Origin: a virus
Lineage: Duplodnaviria > Caudoviricetes
DNA: 34,946 nucleotides
Strand: one strand, 5' to 3'
IMG/VR virus record: IMGVR_UViG_3300008255_000285
Coordinates: 1 to 34,946 of that record
The position numbers and the translations under genes were made by a program. Of this stretch, positions 1-34,946 are shown piece after piece (within the stretch, counting starts at the first letter, position 1; every line of letters begins with the position of its first letter). The notes beneath the pieces were generated by a model, which was not told the origin of the DNA, did not search any database, and was given only the letters and a program-made list of their open reading frames with translations.

Positions 1-46
1 CATACTCTACATACTCTACATACTCTACATACTCTACATACTCTAC
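1..46. repeat. Tandem 9-bp repeat (CATACTCTA x5 + C), identical to the last 46 nt of the window; terminal overlap of a circular assembly
   Basis: 1-46 is identical to 34901-34946, read directly. Confidence 0.95.
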
Positions 47-241
47 GCATGTTTAAATTTTTGTACTAACCCTATTATAGGGCCATAAATGGAGGCGTGT
101 ACAGTGTCTCCGCCCGCGTGTGTTCGGTCTCGAACATATATCGGATACCATTTGTTATTTACTTTTATATCCTTCGTGTTGACACCACGACACGAAAGCG
201 TCTATTTGTGATACGTGAAGTAAATTTCGGCGTGTGGGCAT
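43..241 (-). pseudogene. Probable frameshifted or deleted small early gene
   Basis: SD-like AGATAGGA (251-258) then ATG at 241 gives MPTRRNLLHVSQIDAFVSWCQHEGYKSK*; the +1 frame continues IKVNNKWYPIYVRDRTHAGGDTVHASIYGPIIGLVQKFKHA* to a TAG at 43-45 with no start codon of its own. Confidence 0.45.
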
Positions 242-2837: not shown

Positions 2838-3125
2838 ATGTAGAGTATTGTAGAGTATGAAGTAAACTAACCCTCTACACCTCACAGCCCGCGTCCTTCT
2901 TCATCCTTGGCCCATATGTAGAGTATGTAGAGTATGTAGAGTATGGTTCGAACTCTTCTAACGTGTACACGACGTTATGTACCCCTTTTTTTCTTAAAAT
3001 TCTTATATAAAGGGGGGAGAATTATACTCTACATACTCTACAGGTCGGCTCTGCGCGGCGGCTCTCTTTGGTTCTGGGCCGTAGAGTATGAGCCGTTCGT
3101 CATACTCTACACATACTCTACATAC
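2838..3125. repeat. Iteron module A: TGTAGAGTA repeats in both orientations around an AT-rich tract; putative replication origin
   Basis: Copies at 2839-2859, 2917-2945 (x3), inverted 3024-3042, hairpin 3081-3110; diverged duplicate at 34625-34946. Confidence 0.75.
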
Positions 3126-23048: not shown

Positions 23049-25178
23049 TTAAATCGGGATGTCAGAACCGTGTCGGAGGCGGCACGGACGGCATCGGACC
23101 ACAGAACCCCCTAAACGGCGGTTGTAAGGTTCACAACCCATGGCGTTCATACGTCTGCCCCACACCACGGAAATAAAAGGGTTCCTGTAGCCGTTGTTTT
23201 TGGCCCATTCCGAGTAATCTCCATACAAATCGTTACTTGGTTCGCCCTTGTCGGCTTCACATTCTTCCATTCTCTCATGAAACCATAACTTCACGCTATC
23301 ATTTTCCATCATGTAGTCCTCAATCTCTTCGGTCGACGACATAGGCGGGTCAAATTTTCCTCGTTTGTATAGTCTTCCTAGAGCGGACATCCACCGTTTA
23401 AATATTCCTGCCCGCTCCGCGTTTAGTTTCTTGTCCAAGTCGGGGTCGGGATTGGCTACCCTATTTTCACATCGTAGGATAATCATGCGGCGTTTTAGCG
23501 CGTCCGAATTGTCGCTTGTCGCGGGCATTTCGTTGACCAACTCAATAAACCGTGTCGTTAGCATTACGTTGTTGCGCGTTTCGCCATACAAATAACGGAT
23601 GTCCACGGGGTCCTCGCCCGTAATCTTTTTTAGATAGGTGTCCGCCATCGTGTTAAGCTTGGATTGCTCACCACTTATGTTCACTTTTTTACCGACAAGG
23701 GACGTTCTCTTACGCTCATCGTTTAAATCAGTAATCGATACGGACCCCACCGCGTCAGGGTCCTGCATGGATTTAAGGATACGGGCCAAAGTACCTTTGC
23801 CGTTGCCGCCTGGACCCTTCAATACCAAAAATTTCTGGAACGACATGTCGTCAATCAGTGTTAGAGCGAAAAATTCCTCCATCAAGTCCATTGATTGTTG
23901 GTCTTTCTTGAACGTGTCGGATAAAAACTTATCATAGGTGGGACATTCGGCTTTATCGTCCCAATCGAAGTCCAGTTGGTGAAGGATTTCGTGGTCACGG
24001 TCGTGCTTCTCTAACTGTCCCGTCCTAGCGTTATACGTCCCGTTCTTAAGACATATGCGGTGACGCTTCGGGTCGTGTCGTGCGTCCACTCCTGCCGTCA
24101 CCCCGAAGTATTCTCGGGACTGGAGGGTGTGAATGATGTCGAGGGCGTTTTTCACATCGGACTTTTTTAGGGTGACATCCGCTTCGTACATTTCTTTCTT
24201 GAGCCACTCCACGTTAATTGTGGGCCAATGACCGTCCTTATAGTGGCGGAGTTGCCCGTCCACGGTGGCTACATTTTCTGGCCCCCCTAGTTGTTCTATT
24301 CCCCAAAGGGCCATTACTCTCTCGGGCGGGGCTTTCTTTCCTTTTTTCTTGGACGACCCCTGCATGCCTTTTTCTTTGGCACTGTCAATCCAGCCTTGTA
24401 TGGTTTTGGTAGCTTGGGGCCAGTTGTATTTGTCGCCGTTTCGGGCACATGCTTCGCGTTTGGCGCGTTCGATGCGTTGGTGTATCACTTGGTCGGGCCA
24501 GTCCCTTGACACCATCCACGCCACGGCCTCCACGCACGTGTCGTGCGTATTTCCCCCTTTGTCTACCCCCAACCACAACATTTCGTTGAGGTCCCTTATC
24601 TTGTCGCCCTTGCGTTGACAGACGGCGATAATTTCATCAATCGCCCAGCTGGTAATGACAGGAAGCCTGTGGGGGAAACCCTCTTCAATAGGGGCGGTCG
24701 TCCAGTAATATGGTTTTTCTGTCTTGGGGTGGATGGACGGGGGGACCACAGTCTGTGACCCGTGACACAGGATTTCTACCGAGGGCAGGCGTTCAGGCTT
24801 CCCGTCTTTGTCTTTCCGTTTGATTTTTTGGTTTATAACATCCGAAGGTGCTAGGCCAAAAATAGTAAGGCCTTTGCTCCCCTTCTTGGCAGGAGCGTCC
24901 CGCGTCCCGATTGCGTTAAGCACGGGTTCTACCATGTCGTCACTATCCACGTCAATCGCTATTAAAAAATATTCGCTTTCGATTTCCGTGCCGAGGGCCA
25001 AACCGATGTGGTTTAGGTTGTATTGTGCTTCCCAATCCCTAATCTTGGCGGGGGTCGGCTGTTGACTGCAATATTTCTGCCAATCATTTTCAATCGGGCG
25101 TTTTTCGCCTTCCTTTAAAGGGATGGGGCTAAGCCCTAATTCTACGTATTTGTTAAATTCTGGATGTTTTAACTGCAT
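23049..25178 (-). CDS. Primase-polymerase / D5-P4-type SF3 helicase fusion
   Basis: PIPL..GEKRP, IAIDVD, QTVVPPSIHP..Y.W prim-pol motifs; NGTY D5 segment; Walker A GPGGNGKGT; LKKITG.D, N.MP, RR..I. Confidence 0.92.
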   Translation of the reverse strand: MQLKHPEFNKYVELGLSPIPLKEGEKRPIENDWQKYCSQQPTPAKIRDWEAQYNLNHIGLALGTEIESEYFLIAIDVDSDDMVEPVLNAIGTRDAPAKKGSKGLTIFGLAPSDVINQKIKRKDKDGKPERLPSVEILCHGSQTVVPPSIHPKTEKPYYWTTAPIEEGFPHRLPVITSWAIDEIIAVCQRKGDKIRDLNEMLWLGVDKGGNTHDTCVEAVAWMVSRDWPDQVIHQRIERAKREACARNGDKYNWPQATKTIQGWIDSAKEKGMQGSSKKKGKKAPPERVMALWGIEQLGGPENVATVDGQLRHYKDGHWPTINVEWLKKEMYEADVTLKKSDVKNALDIIHTLQSREYFGVTAGVDARHDPKRHRICLKNGTYNARTGQLEKHDRDHEILHQLDFDWDDKAECPTYDKFLSDTFKKDQQSMDLMEEFFALTLIDDMSFQKFLVLKGPGGNGKGTLARILKSMQDPDAVGSVSITDLNDERKRTSLVGKKVNISGEQSKLNTMADTYLKKITGEDPVDIRYLYGETRNNVMLTTRFIELVNEMPATSDNSDALKRRMIILRCENRVANPDPDLDKKLNAERAGIFKRWMSALGRLYKRGKFDPPMSSTEEIEDYMMENDSVKLWFHERMEECEADKGEPSNDLYGDYSEWAKNNGYRNPFISVVWGRRMNAMGCEPYNRRLGGSVVRCRPCRLRHGSDIPI

Positions 25179-26541
25179 CTATAATTACCCCCGCTAAGTC
25201 TTTCTTTTGTTGCAAGGCCTTGATTACTTTGGCCTCTATGGTTGAAGTTACAAAGTCAATGATGTTGACCCCGTGTTGTTGGCCGATACGATGGTTACGG
25301 TCTTCGATTTGAAGACGGTCGTCCAGCGAGAACGAATTTTCGTAGAAAACGGTGGTGTGGCACGGCATTTCCTTGTCACCAAGTAGAGTGTGTCCATATT
25401 TAGCCGCGCTAGACTGGCAAACGATAACACGCGCATCGCCTGTGTTAAATCGTTTTTTCGCATCGTCAATTTCCGCATCGCTTAAACCTCCGTAAATTCC
25501 TGCCACGCCATACGGTTCTAATTCTTTCATTAGAAGCTTCGTAGAATACGTGAAGAAGGTTACTACTACAACACGGCTGTCTATTTCCTCCAATATCTCC
25601 TTCAACTCATTTAATTTTGGGTTCCCCCCTGTGATGAGTTGGGCTTCTTTGTTTTCATCGTACACAAAGCCAGAAGAAATCTGTTGTAACTTGCCCATCT
25701 GGGTAATTACCATTTGTGCCTCGATGTGTTCTTGGTTTACCATAGTGACAAAATCATCCACCATTTCTTTATAAATGCGCTTTTGGGCGGGCGTTTGCGG
25801 TATGTTGCGCACATAATACATTTTCGGGGGGATGTCGGTCCAGTCTTCTTTTTTCGCCCGAAACGCGTTTTGGTCGATTATAGCTTGTAATTCGGGCATG
25901 GTGTTAGGGTTGGCCCCCATTATTTGTTTCCCCTGATATCCACCCATTACACAATACCGTTTTTTAAAATTGGCATAAGGCATGCCCTTCAACGCCCCGA
26001 TGAATTTTAATTGGGACCACACGTCTTGCGGCCCCTGTACCATAGGTGCGCCCGATAAAATACGGGTAAAAGAACAGGAACGAGCGATACCGAGCAGGGA
26101 TTTAGTTCTAACTCCGTTGTGCTTCTTGATTTGGGTGCTTTCGTCCAAGACAAGCATCACGCGCCGCCCCATGTCGAGTAATTGTTTAATGTACAAGTAT
26201 CCCCGTTTACTGGCGATGGCTAAAGTTTCATAGTTAAGGATTTTAACTCTTGGTTTTAGGTCTGGGGTACAGTCATCCCACACCTCGGATTTAAGTTTGC
26301 CTTCGGACCAAAACTCTACTTCATTGGCCCAGTTGGTTTTCAACGAATTAGGACATACCACGATTAAGTTATCTACTTTGTCATCTATCAACAACTGCAT
26401 AAACTCCGCCAGTGTGACGGCGGTCTTCCCAAGTCCCATCTCCATAAAATACGCAAACCCATGTCTTCGGTCTGCGGTTTTGGATAGGGCTAAGGCCTGA
26501 ACTTCAAAAGGGCTATGCTTTAGGGGCCATGTCTGTATCAT
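25153..26541 (-). CDS. SNF2-family (SF2) helicase; start uncertain (26541-26616)
   Basis: MEMGLGKT, VVCP, NYE, VLDES..IK, LSGAP, G.TL and Q.EDR.HRIGQ motifs. Confidence 0.9.
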   Translation of the reverse strand: MIQTWPLKHSPFEVQALALSKTADRRHGFAYFMEMGLGKTAVTLAEFMQLLIDDKVDNLIVVCPNSLKTNWANEVEFWSEGKLKSEVWDDCTPDLKPRVKILNYETLAIASKRGYLYIKQLLDMGRRVMLVLDESTQIKKHNGVRTKSLLGIARSCSFTRILSGAPMVQGPQDVWSQLKFIGALKGMPYANFKKRYCVMGGYQGKQIMGANPNTMPELQAIIDQNAFRAKKEDWTDIPPKMYYVRNIPQTPAQKRIYKEMVDDFVTMVNQEHIEAQMVITQMGKLQQISSGFVYDENKEAQLITGGNPKLNELKEILEEIDSRVVVVTFFTYSTKLLMKELEPYGVAGIYGGLSDAEIDDAKKRFNTGDARVIVCQSSAAKYGHTLLGDKEMPCHTTVFYENSFSLDDRLQIEDRNHRIGQQHGVNIIDFVTSTIEAKVIKALQQKKDLAGVIIDAVKTSRI

Positions 26542-27100
26542 TTTCTGGTAAAAACTTTCTATCAGCTTGTTTTGCGATAAAGTCTTTGAACAATAAGACT
26601 TTGTAGGCTTCTTCAATCGGGAGTACGTCTATGGCTTTCACCAATCGGTCTTGTACTGTCTTAAGCAACCCGTCCGTGTCGGATAGCGTGTTGCCCATGC
26701 GCAATTCCATGTAGAGGTATGCGTATTCATCCATTAAGTCCGCAATCTTAACAATCGACTTGGGCCAAAATGACGGACTAGTGCGGTTGCCAAAACACTG
26801 AATTTCTTTGTTGCGTTCGAAATTCTCGCGTCTGTGCGGGTCTTGTATCTCGCGCTTTACAGGGCCAGGTATGTCTGACATAAAACACTCGTGCCTGTCA
26901 TGAATGAGGGCGTACCGAACCACACTTAACCTCTCATTGTCGTGCATTACGTGTCCTGCCCGTGTCGTGAGAAACGTGCATATTTGGTCCGCGTACAGGG
27001 CCACGTAATACATGTGTTCTGCCACAGATTGTACGTGTTTAGTGGGAAAAATACCCCATCTTGGGACAAAGGCCAAATCTCTATAATCTCTTTCAAACAT
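26513..27100 (-). CDS. datZ: HD-domain (YfbR-like) deoxynucleotide phosphohydrolase, DatZ-like dATPase; start MFERDY
   Basis: V.RW, QSVAEH, LIHD..E..MSDIP.PVK, IVKIAD motifs; GGAGG SD before the ATG at 27100; next to purZ. Confidence 0.8.
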   Translation of the reverse strand: MFERDYRDLAFVPRWGIFPTKHVQSVAEHMYYVALYADQICTFLTTRAGHVMHDNERLSVVRYALIHDRHECFMSDIPGPVKREIQDPHRRENFERNKEIQCFGNRTSPSFWPKSIVKIADLMDEYAYLYMELRMGNTLSDTDGLLKTVQDRLVKAIDVLPIEEAYKVLLFKDFIAKQADRKFLPENDTDMAPKA

Positions 27101-27569: not shown

Positions 27570-27778
27570 TGTTTATACACCTTTCCGTATCCTATCAATC
27601 CTGTGTATTGGTCATTAGGCCCGCGTCCAAAGACTTCGGTCCCGTTCCTTTCTTCATAGTCTACCCTGTACGCAGGGTCGTCCATAAAAGACAAGAGTTT
27701 TTCAAACGCGGGTAAAAATTGCTTACACCCGCAAATGATTTTGGTCTCATAGACCATCTTTTCATTAGAATGGGACAC
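27554..27778 (-). CDS. Hypothetical protein (74 aa) inside the Z cluster
   Basis: Overlaps the purZ stop and the mazZ start; fills the gap between them. Confidence 0.55.
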   Translation of the reverse strand: MSHSNEKMVYETKIICGCKQFLPAFEKLLSFMDDPAYRVDYEERNGTEVFGRGPNDQYTGLIGYGKVYKQCDTN

Positions 27779-28862
27779 CAGTAACTTCCTGTCTCATTTT
27801 GCTTTCTTCTGGGGACACGTCCTTCACCGTAGGCCCCCACGAAAACAAATATTCGGGCCTAATGCCGACTTTATCCTCTATATAGGCCATTTTTTTAAGG
27901 TGCGTGTTGACCTCCTCGGGGGTGCGGTAGTAATTCATAAAATTCATGAACACGCCATCGGGACGAAGTGTACGCAACATATTTTCGTATTGTTGATTAG
28001 ACCAAGTAGCCACGCGGCGGACGCGCTTGGTCACGGTGGTCCTTTCTTCGGGTAAACCGAGTTCGCCCCATGTGGTTTCGATACTGTCAGGCCAAAACGG
28101 ACCACTATCGCCTATTTGGTTCCCTTGGTCATCGTAAATGTGGCCCACTCGGATGGGGAACGTACGGAGAGAAACCATTACTTCCCCTAAAAAAGAAGGA
28201 TGTAGGCCCGCGTCATTTAAAGCCGAAGCCACTGTAATATCGCGTGACGTGCAATAAGGGTAGGCTAGTCCGTAGTTAAGGGACAAATCAAACCCTTGTG
28301 GCACTTCCATAATCCCGCGTTTAAGTTCCAATTCCGCCGCTAAATCCAGTGCCATAACAGTCATATCTGTTTTATGAACGCCATAGTAGTCTTTGGCTAG
28401 GACTACCCCCTTCTGTCTTGCGACTTTCGCGGCCAGAGAAGCCCCTACCCCCTTCTGGGTGGACCCTAACCCCGTGGCCCCCGAGTTAGCGGCCTTCTCT
28501 TGCGCCGCGTGTTCGGGAAGGAGTATAGCGGCGCGGGGGTGCACTATGACACGGGACGGGTGGACCCCGAAGGTGACTAATTCTTGCGCCAAAAGTTCGG
28601 GGTCGATAATCGCTCCCGCGCACAAATAAATAAGCGCGTCCTTGTTCATAACGCCCGTGATGGGTAGATGAAACGTGGTTCGTTTTCCCTTCCCGTCTGC
28701 AAGGTCGAACGTGTGCCCCGCGTTGGGGGCCGCATTAGAAACGCATATGTCGTACTGACGACGGTGGGCCAAATAAGCATTCAACGCCCCTTTGCCCGTG
28801 GACCCAAATTGCCCATCCATTGTAATGTGTAGTTTTCCGTATTCGCTAAGTAGGTTTGGCAT
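27765..28862 (-). CDS. purZ: PurZ, N6-succino-2-amino-dAMP synthetase (PurA paralogue); start MPNLL, 365 aa
   Basis: DGQFGSTGKG (Ser replaces the PurA catalytic Asp of GDEGKG), NAGHT, YPYCTSR, TTVTKRVRR, NFMNY in place of TKLD; AGATAGGAG SD. Confidence 0.92.
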   Translation of the reverse strand: MPNLLSEYGKLHITMDGQFGSTGKGALNAYLAHRRQYDICVSNAAPNAGHTFDLADGKGKRTTFHLPITGVMNKDALIYLCAGAIIDPELLAQELVTFGVHPSRVIVHPRAAILLPEHAAQEKAANSGATGLGSTQKGVGASLAAKVARQKGVVLAKDYYGVHKTDMTVMALDLAAELELKRGIMEVPQGFDLSLNYGLAYPYCTSRDITVASALNDAGLHPSFLGEVMVSLRTFPIRVGHIYDDQGNQIGDSGPFWPDSIETTWGELGLPEERTTVTKRVRRVATWSNQQYENMLRTLRPDGVFMNFMNYYRTPEEVNTHLKKMAYIEDKVGIRPEYLFSWGPTVKDVSPEESKMRQEVTGVPF

Positions 28863-28872
28863 GTTTAATCTC

Positions 28873-29226
28873 CTATCTGTCAATACCTGCGCCAAGGTCT
28901 TTGGCAATTGAACTATAACCATTAACATCGTCATAGTTGTCGGGGTGGTACGTTCCTGTGGCAATACGCGCCACTTTGTGCAGTACCATTTCCATCGCAT
29001 CGTCATGTGCTTCAATTTGCTTGAAGTCCCAATGGGGGTTTTCCATCATGGCGGTGCGGCGGGCCTCACGATAGAGGCGTTTAAATGCGGCGGTTAACCG
29101 CAAATTTCTATTCGCCTTGCCGTATACGCTCCCTCTCTGATTGAGCAATGACTGCGTTGGCGATAGCGTTGAGGTCGATTGGGTCCCCAATTCCTCTGGC
29201 TTGGACAAGTTGGTCGTCTCTGACAT
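28873..29226 (-). CDS. DUF6378-like small helical protein associated with nucleotide-modification clusters
   Basis: L.QRG..YG....N ... M...KVARI..G..H.D.Y.D..GY motif. Confidence 0.65.
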   Translation of the reverse strand: MSETTNLSKPEELGTQSTSTLSPTQSLLNQRGSVYGKANRNLRLTAAFKRLYREARRTAMMENPHWDFKQIEAHDDAMEMVLHKVARIATGTYHPDNYDDVNGYSSIAKDLGAGIDR

Positions 29227-29530
29227 GGGTATCCTCCGTTCCTATTACGTAAATGTAGTCAGTGTTTTCGATTTTACAGCACACTACACACGCCGCGCTT
29301 CCTCCAGCTTGGATTTCGCGTTTCGCTTCGTGTCGTTGTCTTTGTGTTAACCCTACTTCGGTCCCTTTGGTGGGAATAGTTTTAAGTTCCCACCACATCG
29401 CGCCGTGCATCACGGTGCGGACGTACAAATCTAAACTAATGTGGCCCATGGCCGAAGCCACTTTTTTACACCGCCATTTAAGTTCTTTAGCACGGTCTCT
29501 AATTCGATTTTTAAAGGTAGCTTCTTTCAT
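29108..29530 (-). CDS. VRR-NUC / PD-(D/E)xK nuclease (resolvase-like)
   Basis: M.E..F, LDL, WELK and LT..Q..E motifs; downstream of the polymerase. Confidence 0.7.
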   Translation of the reverse strand: MKEATFKNRIRDRAKELKWRCKKVASAMGHISLDLYVRTVMHGAMWWELKTIPTKGTEVGLTQRQRHEAKREIQAGGSAACVVCCKIENTDYIYVIGTEDTHVRDDQLVQARGIGDPIDLNAIANAVIAQSERERIRQGE

Positions 29531-29669
29531 CTAGGTCCTCCTCTGTTTGTGTTTCTAACGCCCTACCTCCACACGCCTCGCATCGCAACCGAATAGGGAT
29601 GCCCGTGTTTACAATCCCCGTCATGGGAACTTTACATTTGTCGCATTTAACGAATAGGTTTTTATTCAT
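29511..29669 (-). CDS. Small zinc-ribbon protein (52 aa)
   Basis: CDKC...CEACG; GGAG SD; overlaps the polymerase stop. Confidence 0.6.
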   Translation of the reverse strand: MNKNLFVKCDKCKVPMTGIVNTGIPIRLRCEACGGRALETQTEEDLDERSYL

Positions 29670-31446
29670 ACTTGCTCCAATCCTGTTTAGGGAAGGACGC
29701 ATGGCCCCAACTTTCCCCGACGTTGCCCTCCACTGTCATGGGGACGTAAAGCTTAGGAAACATACTAAAATCCTCCATAATCTCTATTGCGCGTTGGTTC
29801 CAATCCATGTGTTCAGGCGGGATAGACCAATCAAGAGCATCGTGGACTTGTAATTGTAAGCCTAACACACCGCCCGACACTTCGTCCAGATATTTGTCAA
29901 CCTCTACCATTTTAATTTTAGTCAAATCGGCGCATGTCCCTTGGATTACACGGCTGGACCCTTGATATCCCTTCCCTCGGTCCTCGAAACGCGCCCTGCG
30001 GCCAAGAATAGTTTTAATATAGCCCCTAGACCTAACCCCCGATTGGCATTTACGTAGGAAAATCATAGTTTCGGGGATACGAGAATGGTAAATGTTAAGG
30101 TATTCATTGGCTTCTTTCACAGAACAACCGAATTTGGTACTAAAAGTTTTGGCCCCCATCCAGTTTAGCATCGCCATGTTCAGGCGTTTGGCGGTGGGGT
30201 CACGTTCGCAATTCAACATCTGGGCAACCACCGAGTGGATATCCTCTCCGCGTTGGTATCCTTTAATCAGAGAAGGACAGTGTGCGTATGCCGCGAAAAC
30301 TCGGTATTCCTGTTGGCTGTAATCATTCGTGGACCAAAGACAACCTTCGTCTGGGACAAAAATAGTGCGTAAAATAGGGGCCAACCACTTATCCCGCTTC
30401 GGTACTTGTTGCATGTTTGGCCCGTTGGAAGAAAGACGGCCCGTAATCGTGCCGTACTCGTCATTGCGCAATTGATTGAAATTGGTGTGCACCCGCCCGT
30501 TAAATAAATTATTCTCAATCGCCCCTTCGATGAAGGTATGCAGTAGGTTTTCCAACTTACGGACTTTGATGATGTTTGCGCCTAACTCGCCGCCCTCGGC
30601 CTCCAGCCATTCGGCTGTGAAAGAGGGGTTGCCCTTCGGGGTGACGGGGTAATCGGTTATCCCGCTGTCTAACATGACCTTCTTGACCGAAGGGGCGGAC
30701 AACACGTTCATTCCCTCGGGAAGCGTGACACGCGCCATTTCAATCTGTTTCAACGTCCACGCCTTAACATAAGCCAAACGCTCCTCGTCAATCCGAACCC
30801 CGCGCCGTTCCATGCGGAATAGGACAGGCAACACTTGGCACTCGGTGTGCCACACGCGGCGCAAATCATCTGCGTCTAGTCGGTCCTGTTGTTTTTTCCA
30901 CAAATAATACGTTGCATCACCGTCCCCACAGGCATAGTCAACCGCGATAGGGTCGTCAGCCGACAACCTCCAAAAGTTAGCCATCTGCGCACGTTCAGGG
31001 TTTCCACCGAATTGTTTGGCCATGTGTTCGTACAGGGCTTCGCCTTTTTTAGCAGGGGTCCCGAAGAAGTAGCATTGGTTTTCCAGTGAGAACCCGCCCT
31101 TCATGTGTTCGTATATTAGTGTACCATTGGTTTGAGTGTCTTCGAACTCGGCGTTTGGAAAATAGATGCCATCATTTGCAAGGAAATGCAGGTCGAACTT
31201 GAGATTGTGGCCAATAAGCTTAATCGGTAAATGAGACCATGACTTAATCCAAGATATAACCCGTTCTGGGTCGAGGTTAGGGCCTTTTTCATGGCGTATT
31301 GGATAATACGTTGTCTTCGGCTTGCCGTCATCCTCGACTGTAACAACGAAGCCACAAGTTCGGCACTCTTGCCATGATAGCCCTGTCGTTTCAGTATCGA
31401 GAACAACCGCGTCTCCCGCTGTGATTGTGGGGAAAGTAACATCCAT
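29662..31446 (-). CDS. dpoZ: Family A DNA polymerase with 3'-5' exonuclease, DpoZ candidate
   Basis: Exo DTET, HNLKFD, YA..D; TGRLSS..PNMQQ; motif A DYSQQEYR; divergent motif B; motif C VHD; linked to purZ. The dpoZ symbol is inferred from context. Confidence 0.85.
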   Translation of the reverse strand: MDVTFPTITAGDAVVLDTETTGLSWQECRTCGFVVTVEDDGKPKTTYYPIRHEKGPNLDPERVISWIKSWSHLPIKLIGHNLKFDLHFLANDGIYFPNAEFEDTQTNGTLIYEHMKGGFSLENQCYFFGTPAKKGEALYEHMAKQFGGNPERAQMANFWRLSADDPIAVDYACGDGDATYYLWKKQQDRLDADDLRRVWHTECQVLPVLFRMERRGVRIDEERLAYVKAWTLKQIEMARVTLPEGMNVLSAPSVKKVMLDSGITDYPVTPKGNPSFTAEWLEAEGGELGANIIKVRKLENLLHTFIEGAIENNLFNGRVHTNFNQLRNDEYGTITGRLSSNGPNMQQVPKRDKWLAPILRTIFVPDEGCLWSTNDYSQQEYRVFAAYAHCPSLIKGYQRGEDIHSVVAQMLNCERDPTAKRLNMAMLNWMGAKTFSTKFGCSVKEANEYLNIYHSRIPETMIFLRKCQSGVRSRGYIKTILGRRARFEDRGKGYQGSSRVIQGTCADLTKIKMVEVDKYLDEVSGGVLGLQLQVHDALDWSIPPEHMDWNQRAIEIMEDFSMFPKLYVPMTVEGNVGESWGHASFPKQDWSKYE

Positions 31447-31810: not shown

Positions 31811-32683
31811 TTACATTTCGATGTCTTTTTCGTCTTGCTTGAAATCTTTGTCGCCGCCAGTTGTGCCTTCATCTTCAAGGTTTTCGATGTCTTTAATACG
31901 AACGCCGTCTTCTTTGAAGTGTTGATACATGGCCCGCATCTGTTCAAACAAGGTTTCATCCGTGAGATAACCTACGCGGTCGAACTGGTAATTGAAGAAA
32001 TCACCTTGGCCCGTGTCATCTTTAATGGACGACAAGTTGTAGATTTGACCGTAGGATGGAGCCTGTGCCAACTTGAGTTTACCCATCAGTTTCTTGGCCA
32101 CGCCTACCGCGCCACGTTGCAAGGTAACCACAGCAGGTGACAAGTGTGGGAAGTCAAGCAAGTAGACCACCATGTTGTACATTTTGGTAGCCGCAGGTTG
32201 TGAATTGGCGTTGTCAGGGTCGTAACTACCCCACTCGGCTAGGCCACTTTCAGCTACGGTTGGTTTGGTTTCCCAAACTACCGAACGGTCGGACCCTTTA
32301 TCGGGCTTGACAGTGAATTTAGCCTTGGGCGGGTTCCAGTGAACGCCGTCATCCGCACGGGCCAAAATACCACCACCTTCGTGGCGTGGTCTCCACAGAA
32401 TGTAACGAATGTCCGTGTAAATGGGGATAACGCGAACTTGTTTGCCCAACGCTTCTTCTAGGACAGAGTGATAAAACACTCCTGGTTTCTCGTCACCATC
32501 CGTCACTTCGGGGGATAGGGCCTGTAGTAACTGGAGGCGGGGGATTTCAACATCGCCTGACCCAACGTTCTCGGTTCCTTCATGTGAGTGCTTGCGCATC
32601 CATTCAGGGGTTTGTTCAGCAATTGCCACTTCACCATTGGTGGTTTCGACTTCTGCTACTTCATTTTTCTTTTTGGTTGCCAT
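31811..32683 (-). CDS. Putative ssDNA-binding/annealing replication protein
   Basis: IPRL.LLQ.LSPEV N-terminal motif, aromatic-rich beta core, acidic C-terminal tail; upstream of the polymerase; AGATAGGAG SD. Confidence 0.6.
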   Translation of the reverse strand: MATKKKNEVAEVETTNGEVAIAEQTPEWMRKHSHEGTENVGSGDVEIPRLQLLQALSPEVTDGDEKPGVFYHSVLEEALGKQVRVIPIYTDIRYILWRPRHEGGGILARADDGVHWNPPKAKFTVKPDKGSDRSVVWETKPTVAESGLAEWGSYDPDNANSQPAATKMYNMVVYLLDFPHLSPAVVTLQRGAVGVAKKLMGKLKLAQAPSYGQIYNLSSIKDDTGQGDFFNYQFDRVGYLTDETLFEQMRAMYQHFKEDGVRIKDIENLEDEGTTGGDKDFKQDEKDIEM

Positions 32684-34624: not shown

Positions 34625-34946
34625 TGTAGAGTACATGTAGAGTATAAGGAAACTTCATACTCTACGGCCAGAACCCGCGTCCCGCTTCGCTTCGAGGGGT
34701 GATGTAGAGTATGTAGAGTATGTAGAGTATGGTTCGGGTCTTCTAACATGTGTACGACGTTATGTACACCACCTACCTTCTTTTTAATTCTTATATGGAG
34801 GGGGAGGGTTCTATACTCTACATACTCTACACTAGTCTTCTCTGGCCCGTCCTTCTTCGCGCCAAGGGCGTAGAGTACGAGTATCTGGTCGTACTCTACG
34901 CATACTCTACATACTCTACATACTCTACATACTCTACATACTCTAC
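34625..34946. repeat. Iteron module B, a diverged duplicate of 2838-3125 that continues into 1-46
   Basis: Same order as module A: two iterons, CCCGCGTCC, 3x TGTAGAGTA, GGTTCG..TCTTCTAAC..ACGACGTTATGTAC, AATTCTTATAT, G-run, inverted iterons, hairpin 34868-34901. Confidence 0.85.

Follow-up and report, generated by a model that had tools for sequence, protein, structure and literature searches.

The family A DNA polymerase encoded in the 34,946-base virus record studied here (the window) is real and unusual, yet it represents one allele of a variable active-site pocket in a purZ-linked clade, and its chief value is that it opens a ready test set for the selectivity of polymerases for 2-aminoadenine (Z). 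We give about even weight to the reading that its combination of Met762, Asn766, Trp767, Ser845 and Ala883 (Klenow numbering) is one of many variants in this clade, which would make the floor of the pocket looser and modestly favour base pairs with three hydrogen bonds, and which is not a dedicated Z selector. Publications are cited by their identifiers.

Genomic setting of the polymerase

Genes for a podovirus-type virion (head, connector, tail and internal proteins) lie on the + strand of the window, and the - strand carries a replication module that includes the polymerase. The gene order 3' of the polymerase is nuclease-like ORF, DUF6378, purZ, MazG-like gene, datZ, SNF2 helicase and primase, with purZ, mazZ-2 and datZ all located within 5 kb downstream of the polymerase and retaining their key residues. 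The relevant features are:

23049..26616, - strand: SNF2-type helicase (25153-26616) and primase-D5 helicase (23049-25178), part of the same replication module
26513..27100, - strand: datZ, dATP triphosphohydrolase, sharing the RWGI, AEH, HD, P-K and KIAD residues with S-2L DatZ (PMC8065100)
27093..27569, - strand: mazZ-2-like MazG protein with a CxxC-rich C-terminal extension, aligning at 31-42% with its counterparts in phiVC8, ZP6 and OH
27765..28862, - strand: purZ, with GQFGSTGKG (Ser for the PurA Asp), TTVTKRVRR and NFMNY, i.e., ATP-type PurZ and not PurZ0; the start of this ORF may lie 14 codons later
28873..29530, - strand: DUF6378 ORF (28873-29226) and nuclease-like ORF without Pfam match (29108-29530), between polymerase and purZ
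29662..31446, - strand: family A DNA polymerase (3'-5' exonuclease and polymerase) of 594 aa, OH-like purZ-linked clade (Pfam, phmmer, structure, trees)
29836..29844, - strand: motif C, H535-D536-A537 (HDE changed to HDA; 883 = Ala; from sequence and alignment)
29941..29955, - strand: motif 6, S498-Q502, with Klenow N845 replaced by Ser (G548 in phiVC8) and Q849 kept
30154..30189, - strand: motif B (O-helix), K420-G431, KRLNMAMLNWMG, with 762 = M424, 763 = A425, 766 = N428 and 767 = W429
30190..30204, - strand: R415-D-P-T-A, with the R754 equivalent and a one-residue insertion at the site of the seven-residue insertion 2 of phiVC8 DpoZ (PMC8599892)
30301..30324, - strand: motif A, D375-R382 (DYSQQEYR), in which both the catalytic Asp and the steric-gate Glu380 are intact
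30982..30993, - strand: exonuclease helix E2 residues R152 and M155, equivalent to R161 and M165 of phiVC8 (PMC8599892) and absent in JL001 and HTVC023P
31192..31398, - strand: exonuclease catalytic residues D17, E19 and D85, equivalent to D26, E28 and D85 of phiVC8
31811..32683, - strand: Pam3 gp34-like protein, kept upstream of the polymerase across the clade

In PurZ of the window, Ser stands where PurA has Asp and the adenine-binding motif NFxNY is present (motif criteria of PMC8342488), and DatZ retains the metal-binding and base-selecting residues listed for S-2L (PMC8065100). Judged by its genes, the window genome would contain Z. The C-terminal extension of the MazZ-2-like protein holds four CxxC pairs and is absent from the OH, phiVC8 and ZP6 genes. 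Elsewhere in the window (1-64, 2849-3125 and 34636-34946) there are arrays of a 9-nt unit (CATACTCTA) in both orientations and an element of ~300 bp that is duplicated ~31,787 bases apart, flanking the region at 0.3-2.9 kb; these are candidate origin or packaging iterons.

Integrity and fold of the polymerase

The ORF at 29662-31446 (- strand) matches Pfam DNA_pol_A (E=3e-55) and has a 3'-5' exonuclease domain; it is an intact family A polymerase in which the DNA_pol_A domain, the Klenow fold, D375, R415, K420 and H535-D536 are all present. The original prediction, based on counting from the motif B Lys, placed Met at 762, Asn at 766 and Trp at 767 and read motif C as HDA, and this is borne out by the ORF, by the codon positions on the - strand (K420 at 30187-30189, M424 at 30175-30177, N428 at 30163-30165 and W429 at 30160-30162) and by a phmmer alignment in which AKRLNMAMLNWMGA of the window aligns without gaps to AKAINFGLIYGMSA of Klenow and AKQMNLGMIFNRG of phiVC8, so that the register of motif B is more than a residue count. 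In the alignment, L455, F459, N460, G548 and S583 of phiVC8 correspond to M424, N428, W429, S498 and A537 of the window. The context of motif C is VHDA, the equivalent of Klenow G763 is Ala, and R415 stands five, not four, residues ahead of the motif B Lys. The replacement of N845 by Ser498 in motif 6 is a further departure that had not been predicted. R754, K758, N845 and Q849 are residues of Klenow with assigned roles.

An artefact, i.e., a misassembly, a misalignment or a decaying gene, might be invoked for a motif of which the string M-A-M-L-N-W occurs in the window alone among the 121 proteins of our clade set (the window and the best 120 of 6,054 homologues, at 39-62% identity). However, the motif B letters are identical, without gaps, in contigs of three aquifer runs other than the possible source (depth 3-4, possibly from one sampling campaign), two of which also cover motif C, the alignment to Klenow is free of gaps, every single change recurs in relatives, and the frame of 594 aa is open with all catalytic residues present. 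An artefact, already largely refuted by these observations, is hardly credible. No RNA data set is listed among those that contain the sequence.

The O-helix had also been described as radically rewritten, which applies to the side chains of the pocket and not to the helix itself. The AlphaFold model of the window polymerase (pLDDT 95.8) has a helix at 415-427 followed by a loop at 428-431, the same segmentation as in the model of P0006, a relative with Tyr-Gly at 766-767; since the end of helix O is identical in both models, the side chains have been altered but the helix has not. R415, K420 and N423 are retained in this helix. In a structure comparison, Pol I fragments and 7PBK were tied as matches, with Z scores of 34-36 and an rmsd of 2.5-3.6 A for 527-563 residues. 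We also considered a register shift in which Asn428 would cap the helix and Trp429 would stand in for the Tyr ring; it has no backbone-level support, the models with Asn-Trp and Tyr-Gly sharing their helix and loop boundaries, and it is also disfavoured by the fact that Trp767 stands mostly alongside Tyr766 (21 of 24). The enzyme is likely the replicative polymerase of this phage for Z DNA.

Variation of the pocket residues

In both trees the window polymerase groups with that of Ochrobactrum phage OH (support 99), apart from the phiVC8-like, JL001-like and Wayne-like polymerases, and it thus falls in neither of the two known DpoZ clades, the alignment with which had been proposed as a check. 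The OH-like and phiVC8-like polymerases form separate clades (99 SH-aLRT each; 100 and 99 by FastTree), whereas the order among OH-like, phiVC8-like and JL001-like is uncertain (support 81). A topology that holds the first two as one clade is not rejected (p-AU 0.52) and, therefore, we claim no independent origin. The R161/M165 element and the loss of N845, common to the window and the phiVC8-like DpoZ, would fit a common origin.

Pocket residues were compared over 256 representatives (<90% identity, from 356 rows), assigned to classes by their nearest reference, where the representatives from outside the purZ-linked clades are the matches listed by broad alignment searches and are mostly distant polymerases. 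Among these matches, Tyr766 and Gly767 are fixed in 211 of 211 (96/96 covered JL001-like and 115/115 bacterial-type representatives), and in 77 of 77 when only the searches whose patterns left out motif B are considered. Phe766 is found in all nine phiVC8-like representatives. The clade of the window is far more variable: among the 121 proteins, position 762 is Leu (75), Gln (20), Met (14) or Phe (12), position 766 is Tyr (73), Thr (23), Asn (20), Ser (4) or Val (1), position 767 is Gly (95), Trp (24) or Asn (2), and position 883 is Glu (60), Ser (37), Asp (13) or Ala (11). An independent representative library gave the same spread in the best 68 of 150 matches (at 766: Thr 32, Tyr 21, Asn 8, Ser 3 and four others). 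Each single change of the window recurs in its relatives, while Asn-Trp at 766-767 is found in 3 of the 121 proteins; individual changes are thus common among clade members, whereas their exact combination is rare. A pattern search for Trp variants gave two viral loci, one of which is real (L345, the same as L011) and the other without a polymerase match, and a single-protein locus search with the window polymerase gave one distant locus only.

In a tree of 147 rows (143 from the clade), constructed with the columns of motifs B, 6 and C left out, position 766 changed at least 11 times within the clade and Trp767 arose in at least three separate places, with Asn766 of the window nested among relatives with Tyr-Trp; Asn-Trp and Met-Asn recur independently (window and P0005; P0051). 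Changes at 762 tend to go with changes at 766 (seven independent pairs, 5.3 the same way and 0 the opposite way, median p 0.06), in keeping with a published comment that residue 762 is positioned by residue 766 (PMC3715850). No co-variation was found between 766 and 845 (median p 0.63), and for Trp767 and 845 there are only three independent pairs.

Some clade members depart in other ways. The motif C His is Tyr (YDS) in L328, P0092 and several representatives, and P0345 has a long insert just ahead of the Tyr-Gly of motif B. Several polymerases of 850-990 aa (P0242, P0246, P0249, P0250 and others) match in two stretches, most of them split at motif A, and probably carry inteins.

Relation of the motif to purZ

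Among OH-class representatives whose loci extend at least 4 kb beyond the polymerase on its downstream side, 22 of 25 have purZ in the locus; the sample was in part retrieved by motif-B patterns, and L195 (OH class by nearest identity but with a T7-type motif) was disregarded. With the same downstream length and among the matches listed, purZ is present in 0 of 42 JL001-like and 0 of 81 bacterial-type representatives. For loci of the Gln-Thr type, 22 of 24 have a polymerase match and all of these 22 have purZ (near-copies included). By direct evidence from the loci, the gene accompanies enzymes with Tyr-Gly, Asn-Gly, Asn-Trp, Thr-Gly and Ser-Met at 766-767, and the purZ phages of the clade as a whole show these pairs and Tyr-Trp. 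Indirect evidence comes from parent-sequence lengths: 21 of the 120 polymerase matches pair with a PurZ match of equal parent-sequence length (mean of 0.48 in a shifted control), i.e., 11 with Tyr-Trp, 8 with Tyr-Gly, 1 with Asn-Trp and 1 with Asn-Gly, and these include 12 of the nearest 20 relatives. It is the clade, therefore, that tracks purZ and not the motif, which is not a dedicated Z signature. In two OH-clade phages (L223 and L084) PurZ carries GGQFGSE(G/A)KG, a PurZ0-like N-terminal motif, which suggests an exchange of purZ types.

A lineage of six genomes (L086 of G002, and L397-L399, L402 and L403 of G008-G012) is a counter-example. Its polymerases carry KTLGLSIFNGM, with Asn766, and Ser845, together with HDA (four) or HDS (two), whereas neither a gene of the adenylosuccinate synthetase family nor DatZ was found in the six genomes by searches with working positive controls; four of the genomes are rated 100% complete, one 94% and one 88%. 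In L086, DUF6378, a nuclease-like gene and the helicase come after the polymerase, but the Z cluster that would lie between them is missing. The lineage is sister to OH and nested inside the purZ clade and, consequently, loss of the Z cluster is its likely history; its DNA has likely gone back from Z to A. One of its genomes encodes an MT-A70-family methyltransferase, which is consistent with adenine DNA. A second branch without purZ (L085, complete, and L164) retains Tyr766.

These data bear on the original prediction that Met762, Asn766, Trp767 and Ala883 are themselves a distinct, selected solution for choosing dZTP over dATP. Part of it stands: the gene is linked to purZ, mazZ and datZ, it lies outside both characterised DpoZ clades and lacks their shared mark, Y766F, the changes fall on pocket residues that are fixed outside the purZ-linked clades among the matches listed, two of the combinations recur independently, as described above, and loss of the ring at 766 disfavours A:T in Klenow Y766A (PMC3715850 Table 1). 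Neither Met762 nor Trp767 was seen in genomes shown to lack purZ, most Trp767 enzymes being without direct context. On the other hand, the nearest relatives (62% identity) have Tyr-Trp and P0006 (54%) has Tyr-Gly, all apparently with purZ, Asn-Trp is as rare in the clade as stated above, and complete genomes that have neither purZ nor datZ combine Asn766, Ser845 and HDA. Wide occurrence of the same motif in phages without purZ had been named as a refuting result; part of the motif was found in one such lineage, which is not widely but goes some way towards that result. Moreover, with an intact DatZ the window does not depend on selection by its polymerase. Overall, we consider such a selected solution unlikely.

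How the pocket may have changed

A more plausible scenario, to which we give about even weight, is that the nucleotide-pool enzymes likely impose Z and the eroded pocket likely adds a modest bias towards pairs with three hydrogen bonds. What is observed is the presence of the Z genes and of their catalytic residues, together with the variation of the pocket across the clade. From characterised homologues, MazZ and PurZ would make the Z precursor and DatZ would destroy dATP, which should suffice for Z in DNA; indeed, the Z cluster alone places Z in the DNA of E. coli, and Klenow does not discriminate (PMC8342488). With all pairs then having three hydrogen bonds and a 2-amino group in the minor groove, the ring of Tyr766, needed by Klenow for closing on weak A:T pairs, may have become dispensable and would repeatedly have given way to Asn, Thr or Ser, all small and polar, in most cases along with a change one helical turn away at 762. 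Closure of this pocket would be poorer on T:dATP than on T:dZTP, and stray A would be removed by proofreading, for which the R152/M155 element is kept. Trp767 would have arisen first on a Tyr background and may pack on an unchanged backbone.

Measurements on Klenow Y766A agree with the direction of this bias, with Kd2 values of 0.11 uM for G-dCTP (wild type 0.20), 79 uM for A-dTTP (wild type 0.83) and 42 uM for T-dATP, for which the table holds no wild-type value (PMC3715850 Table 1), although they concern Ala in a Phe762 background and no Z substrate. In a simulation, Ser at the 766 site hydrogen-bonds the amino group of the template guanine (PMC12756729). The idea of poorer closure on T:dATP is weakened by the retention of Asn766 in the six genomes without purZ or datZ: Asn766 cannot strongly block A:T, and its persistence there limits the possible strength of any bias against A:T. 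Also against the scenario of a modest bias, the co-variation of 762 and 766 stays above p<0.05 (median p 0.06). No kinetics for any enzyme of the OH-like clade were found in the literature.

Another explanation would be that constraint on the pocket was purely relaxed: there would be no preference for Z, as in the PrimPol of S-2L, the base would be set by DatZ, MazZ and PurZ alone, and the pocket residues, for which strong pairs have no need, would drift. The clade tolerates at least five residues at 766 and four each at 762 and 883, Asn766 has outlasted the apparent loss of the Z cluster (in one case in a genome with an MT-A70-family methyltransferase), and S-2L replaces all of its A with an unselective polymerase (PMC8065100). 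The replacements at 766 are, however, nearly all small and polar (Thr, Asn, Ser) and not random, and the R161/M165 element and the loss of N845 are shared with the selective phiVC8-like DpoZ, with which a single clade is compatible (p-AU 0.52). Pure relaxation is possible, in our opinion, but doubtful, and it should be kept in mind that the sequence pattern expected from relaxed constraint is no different from that expected from a selected bias.

At the other extreme, the small polar residue at 766 (Asn, Thr or Ser) with the change at 762 could be a repeatedly evolved switch by which the polymerase closes only on pairs that have three hydrogen bonds or a minor-groove 2-amino group, with Trp767 and Ser845 refitting the same pocket. 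We think this rather improbable. If true, it would be the first residue-level mechanism for the selection of Z over A, independent of the Phe766 route of the known DpoZ, with natural near-pairs (Tyr-Gly, Tyr-Trp and Asn-Trp, at 54-62% identity) at hand, and it would possibly be portable to Klenow or Taq.

Relation to the literature and significance

For phiVC8 DpoZ, the changes to Leu762, Phe766, Gly845 and Ser883 have already been described, as has HDS in place of HDE for phiVC8 DpoZ and phage T5 (PMC8599892). In the accessible parts of the literature, including PMC10201439, PMC12884076, PMC9069017, PMC13369328, PMC4882331, PMC6302109 and bioRxiv 10.1101/2025.10.22.683976, we found no description of Asn, Thr or Ser at 766, of Trp767 or of Met762 in Z-linked polymerases. 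Ochrobactrum is absent from the text supplements of PMC12884076 and PMC8599892; the figures of these papers and the supplement of bioRxiv 10.1101/2025.10.22.683976 (two new DpoZ sequences) may include members of the clade. At least one virome screen (PMC9069017), which accepts no residue at 762 other than Phe, Leu or Tyr, would leave such enzymes out.

How DpoZ distinguishes Z from A is a question for which the structure of the phiVC8 enzyme gave no single determinant (PMC8599892). In the clade described here, close relatives form a natural series of alleles for the floor of the pocket (Tyr-Gly, Tyr-Trp, Asn-Gly, Asn-Trp, Thr-Gly and Ser-Met), which, together with the Asn766 lineage without purZ, makes the roles of 762, 766, 767 and 845 directly testable. 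The clade also reveals that family A can lose, many times over, the Tyr-Gly pair that is treated as invariant. The window contributes to this the branch with Trp767, the joint change to Met and Asn, and the counter-example without purZ.

Comparison with known polymerases

The isolate closest to the window is Ochrobactrum phage vB_OspP_OH (polymerase QIG66084 in MT028492; L002:7941-9767), at 34.5%. Both have the order polymerase, nuclease, purZ, mazZ, datZ and helicase, and both have Met762, Ser845, a residue other than Tyr at 766 and other than Gly at 767; OH has KRMAMGMLSMMY in motif B (Ser766, Met767) and HDS where the window has Asn-Trp and HDA. OH is the only cultured member of the clade, with a motif B even further altered than that of the window. 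It has been named as a MazZ-2 phage (PMC8342488), and we found no biochemical study of its polymerase in the literature.

The phiVC8-like DpoZ (PolA cluster 18 of PMC10201439; DpoZ-2; PDB 7PBK; also in SH-Ab 15497 and PMBT28) are the best sequence match in the PDB (E=1.6e-53), at 29-32% identity, and share the purZ-mazZ-datZ context. Insertion 1, the exonuclease residues R161/M165 (R152 and M155 in the window), a non-aromatic residue at 762, a residue other than Gly at 767 and the loss of N845 and E883 are common to the window and phiVC8 DpoZ. Insertion 1, in the palm (LRNDEYGTITGR in the window), is also present in JL001 and HTVC023P and, therefore, not diagnostic. In contrast, position 766 is Phe in the phiVC8-like enzymes and Asn in the window, 762 is Leu versus Met, 767 is Asn versus Trp and 845 is Gly versus Ser, so that the phiVC8-like signature of L455, F459 and G548 is replaced in the window by M424, N428 and S498. 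Insertion 2, in helix O, has seven residues in phiVC8 and one in the window, where the fingertip insertion 3 is absent. Selectivity has been measured for phiVC8 DpoZ, which prefers dZTP ~30-fold, with no single residue accounting for it and backtracking being proposed (PMC8599892). A phiVC8-like polymerase with Phe766 and insertion 2 also occurs in an Acidobacteria MAG (L241, G006), in which only an ordinary PurA was found in the assembly, which may be incomplete.

The Wayne-like DpoZ (cluster 19; DpoZ-1; Ghobes and Glenn) are likewise family A enzymes of Z phages that have lost the Glu of motif C (HDS). They are far off in the tree, at 23% identity, with Phe762 and Phe766, and their context is PurZ0 with dUTPase-like enzymes (DutZ/DmtZ), whereas the window has an ATP-type PurZ (NFMNY) with DatZ and MazZ. 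Phe at position B4 of motif B (Klenow 766), the mark of both known DpoZ clades (PMC8599892, PMC10201439), is Asn428 in the window.

The phiJL001/HTVC023P-like PolA with Leu762 (cluster 11) belong to the same supercluster, at 31% identity and with insertion 1, but they lack purZ (0/42), have Tyr766-Gly767 (96/96, both counts among the matches listed) and keep N845 and E883; the window differs from them in clade, at 762, at 766-767 and in having a Z cluster. Finally, the ring at 766 is lost, as in the window, in Klenow Y766A and Y766S and in Y714S of the Bacillus fragment, which retain catalysis and favour G:C over A:T in finger closing (PMC3715850), but these are engineered single mutants with a mutator character that lack Met762, Trp767 and Ser845, which in the window accompany the change at 766.
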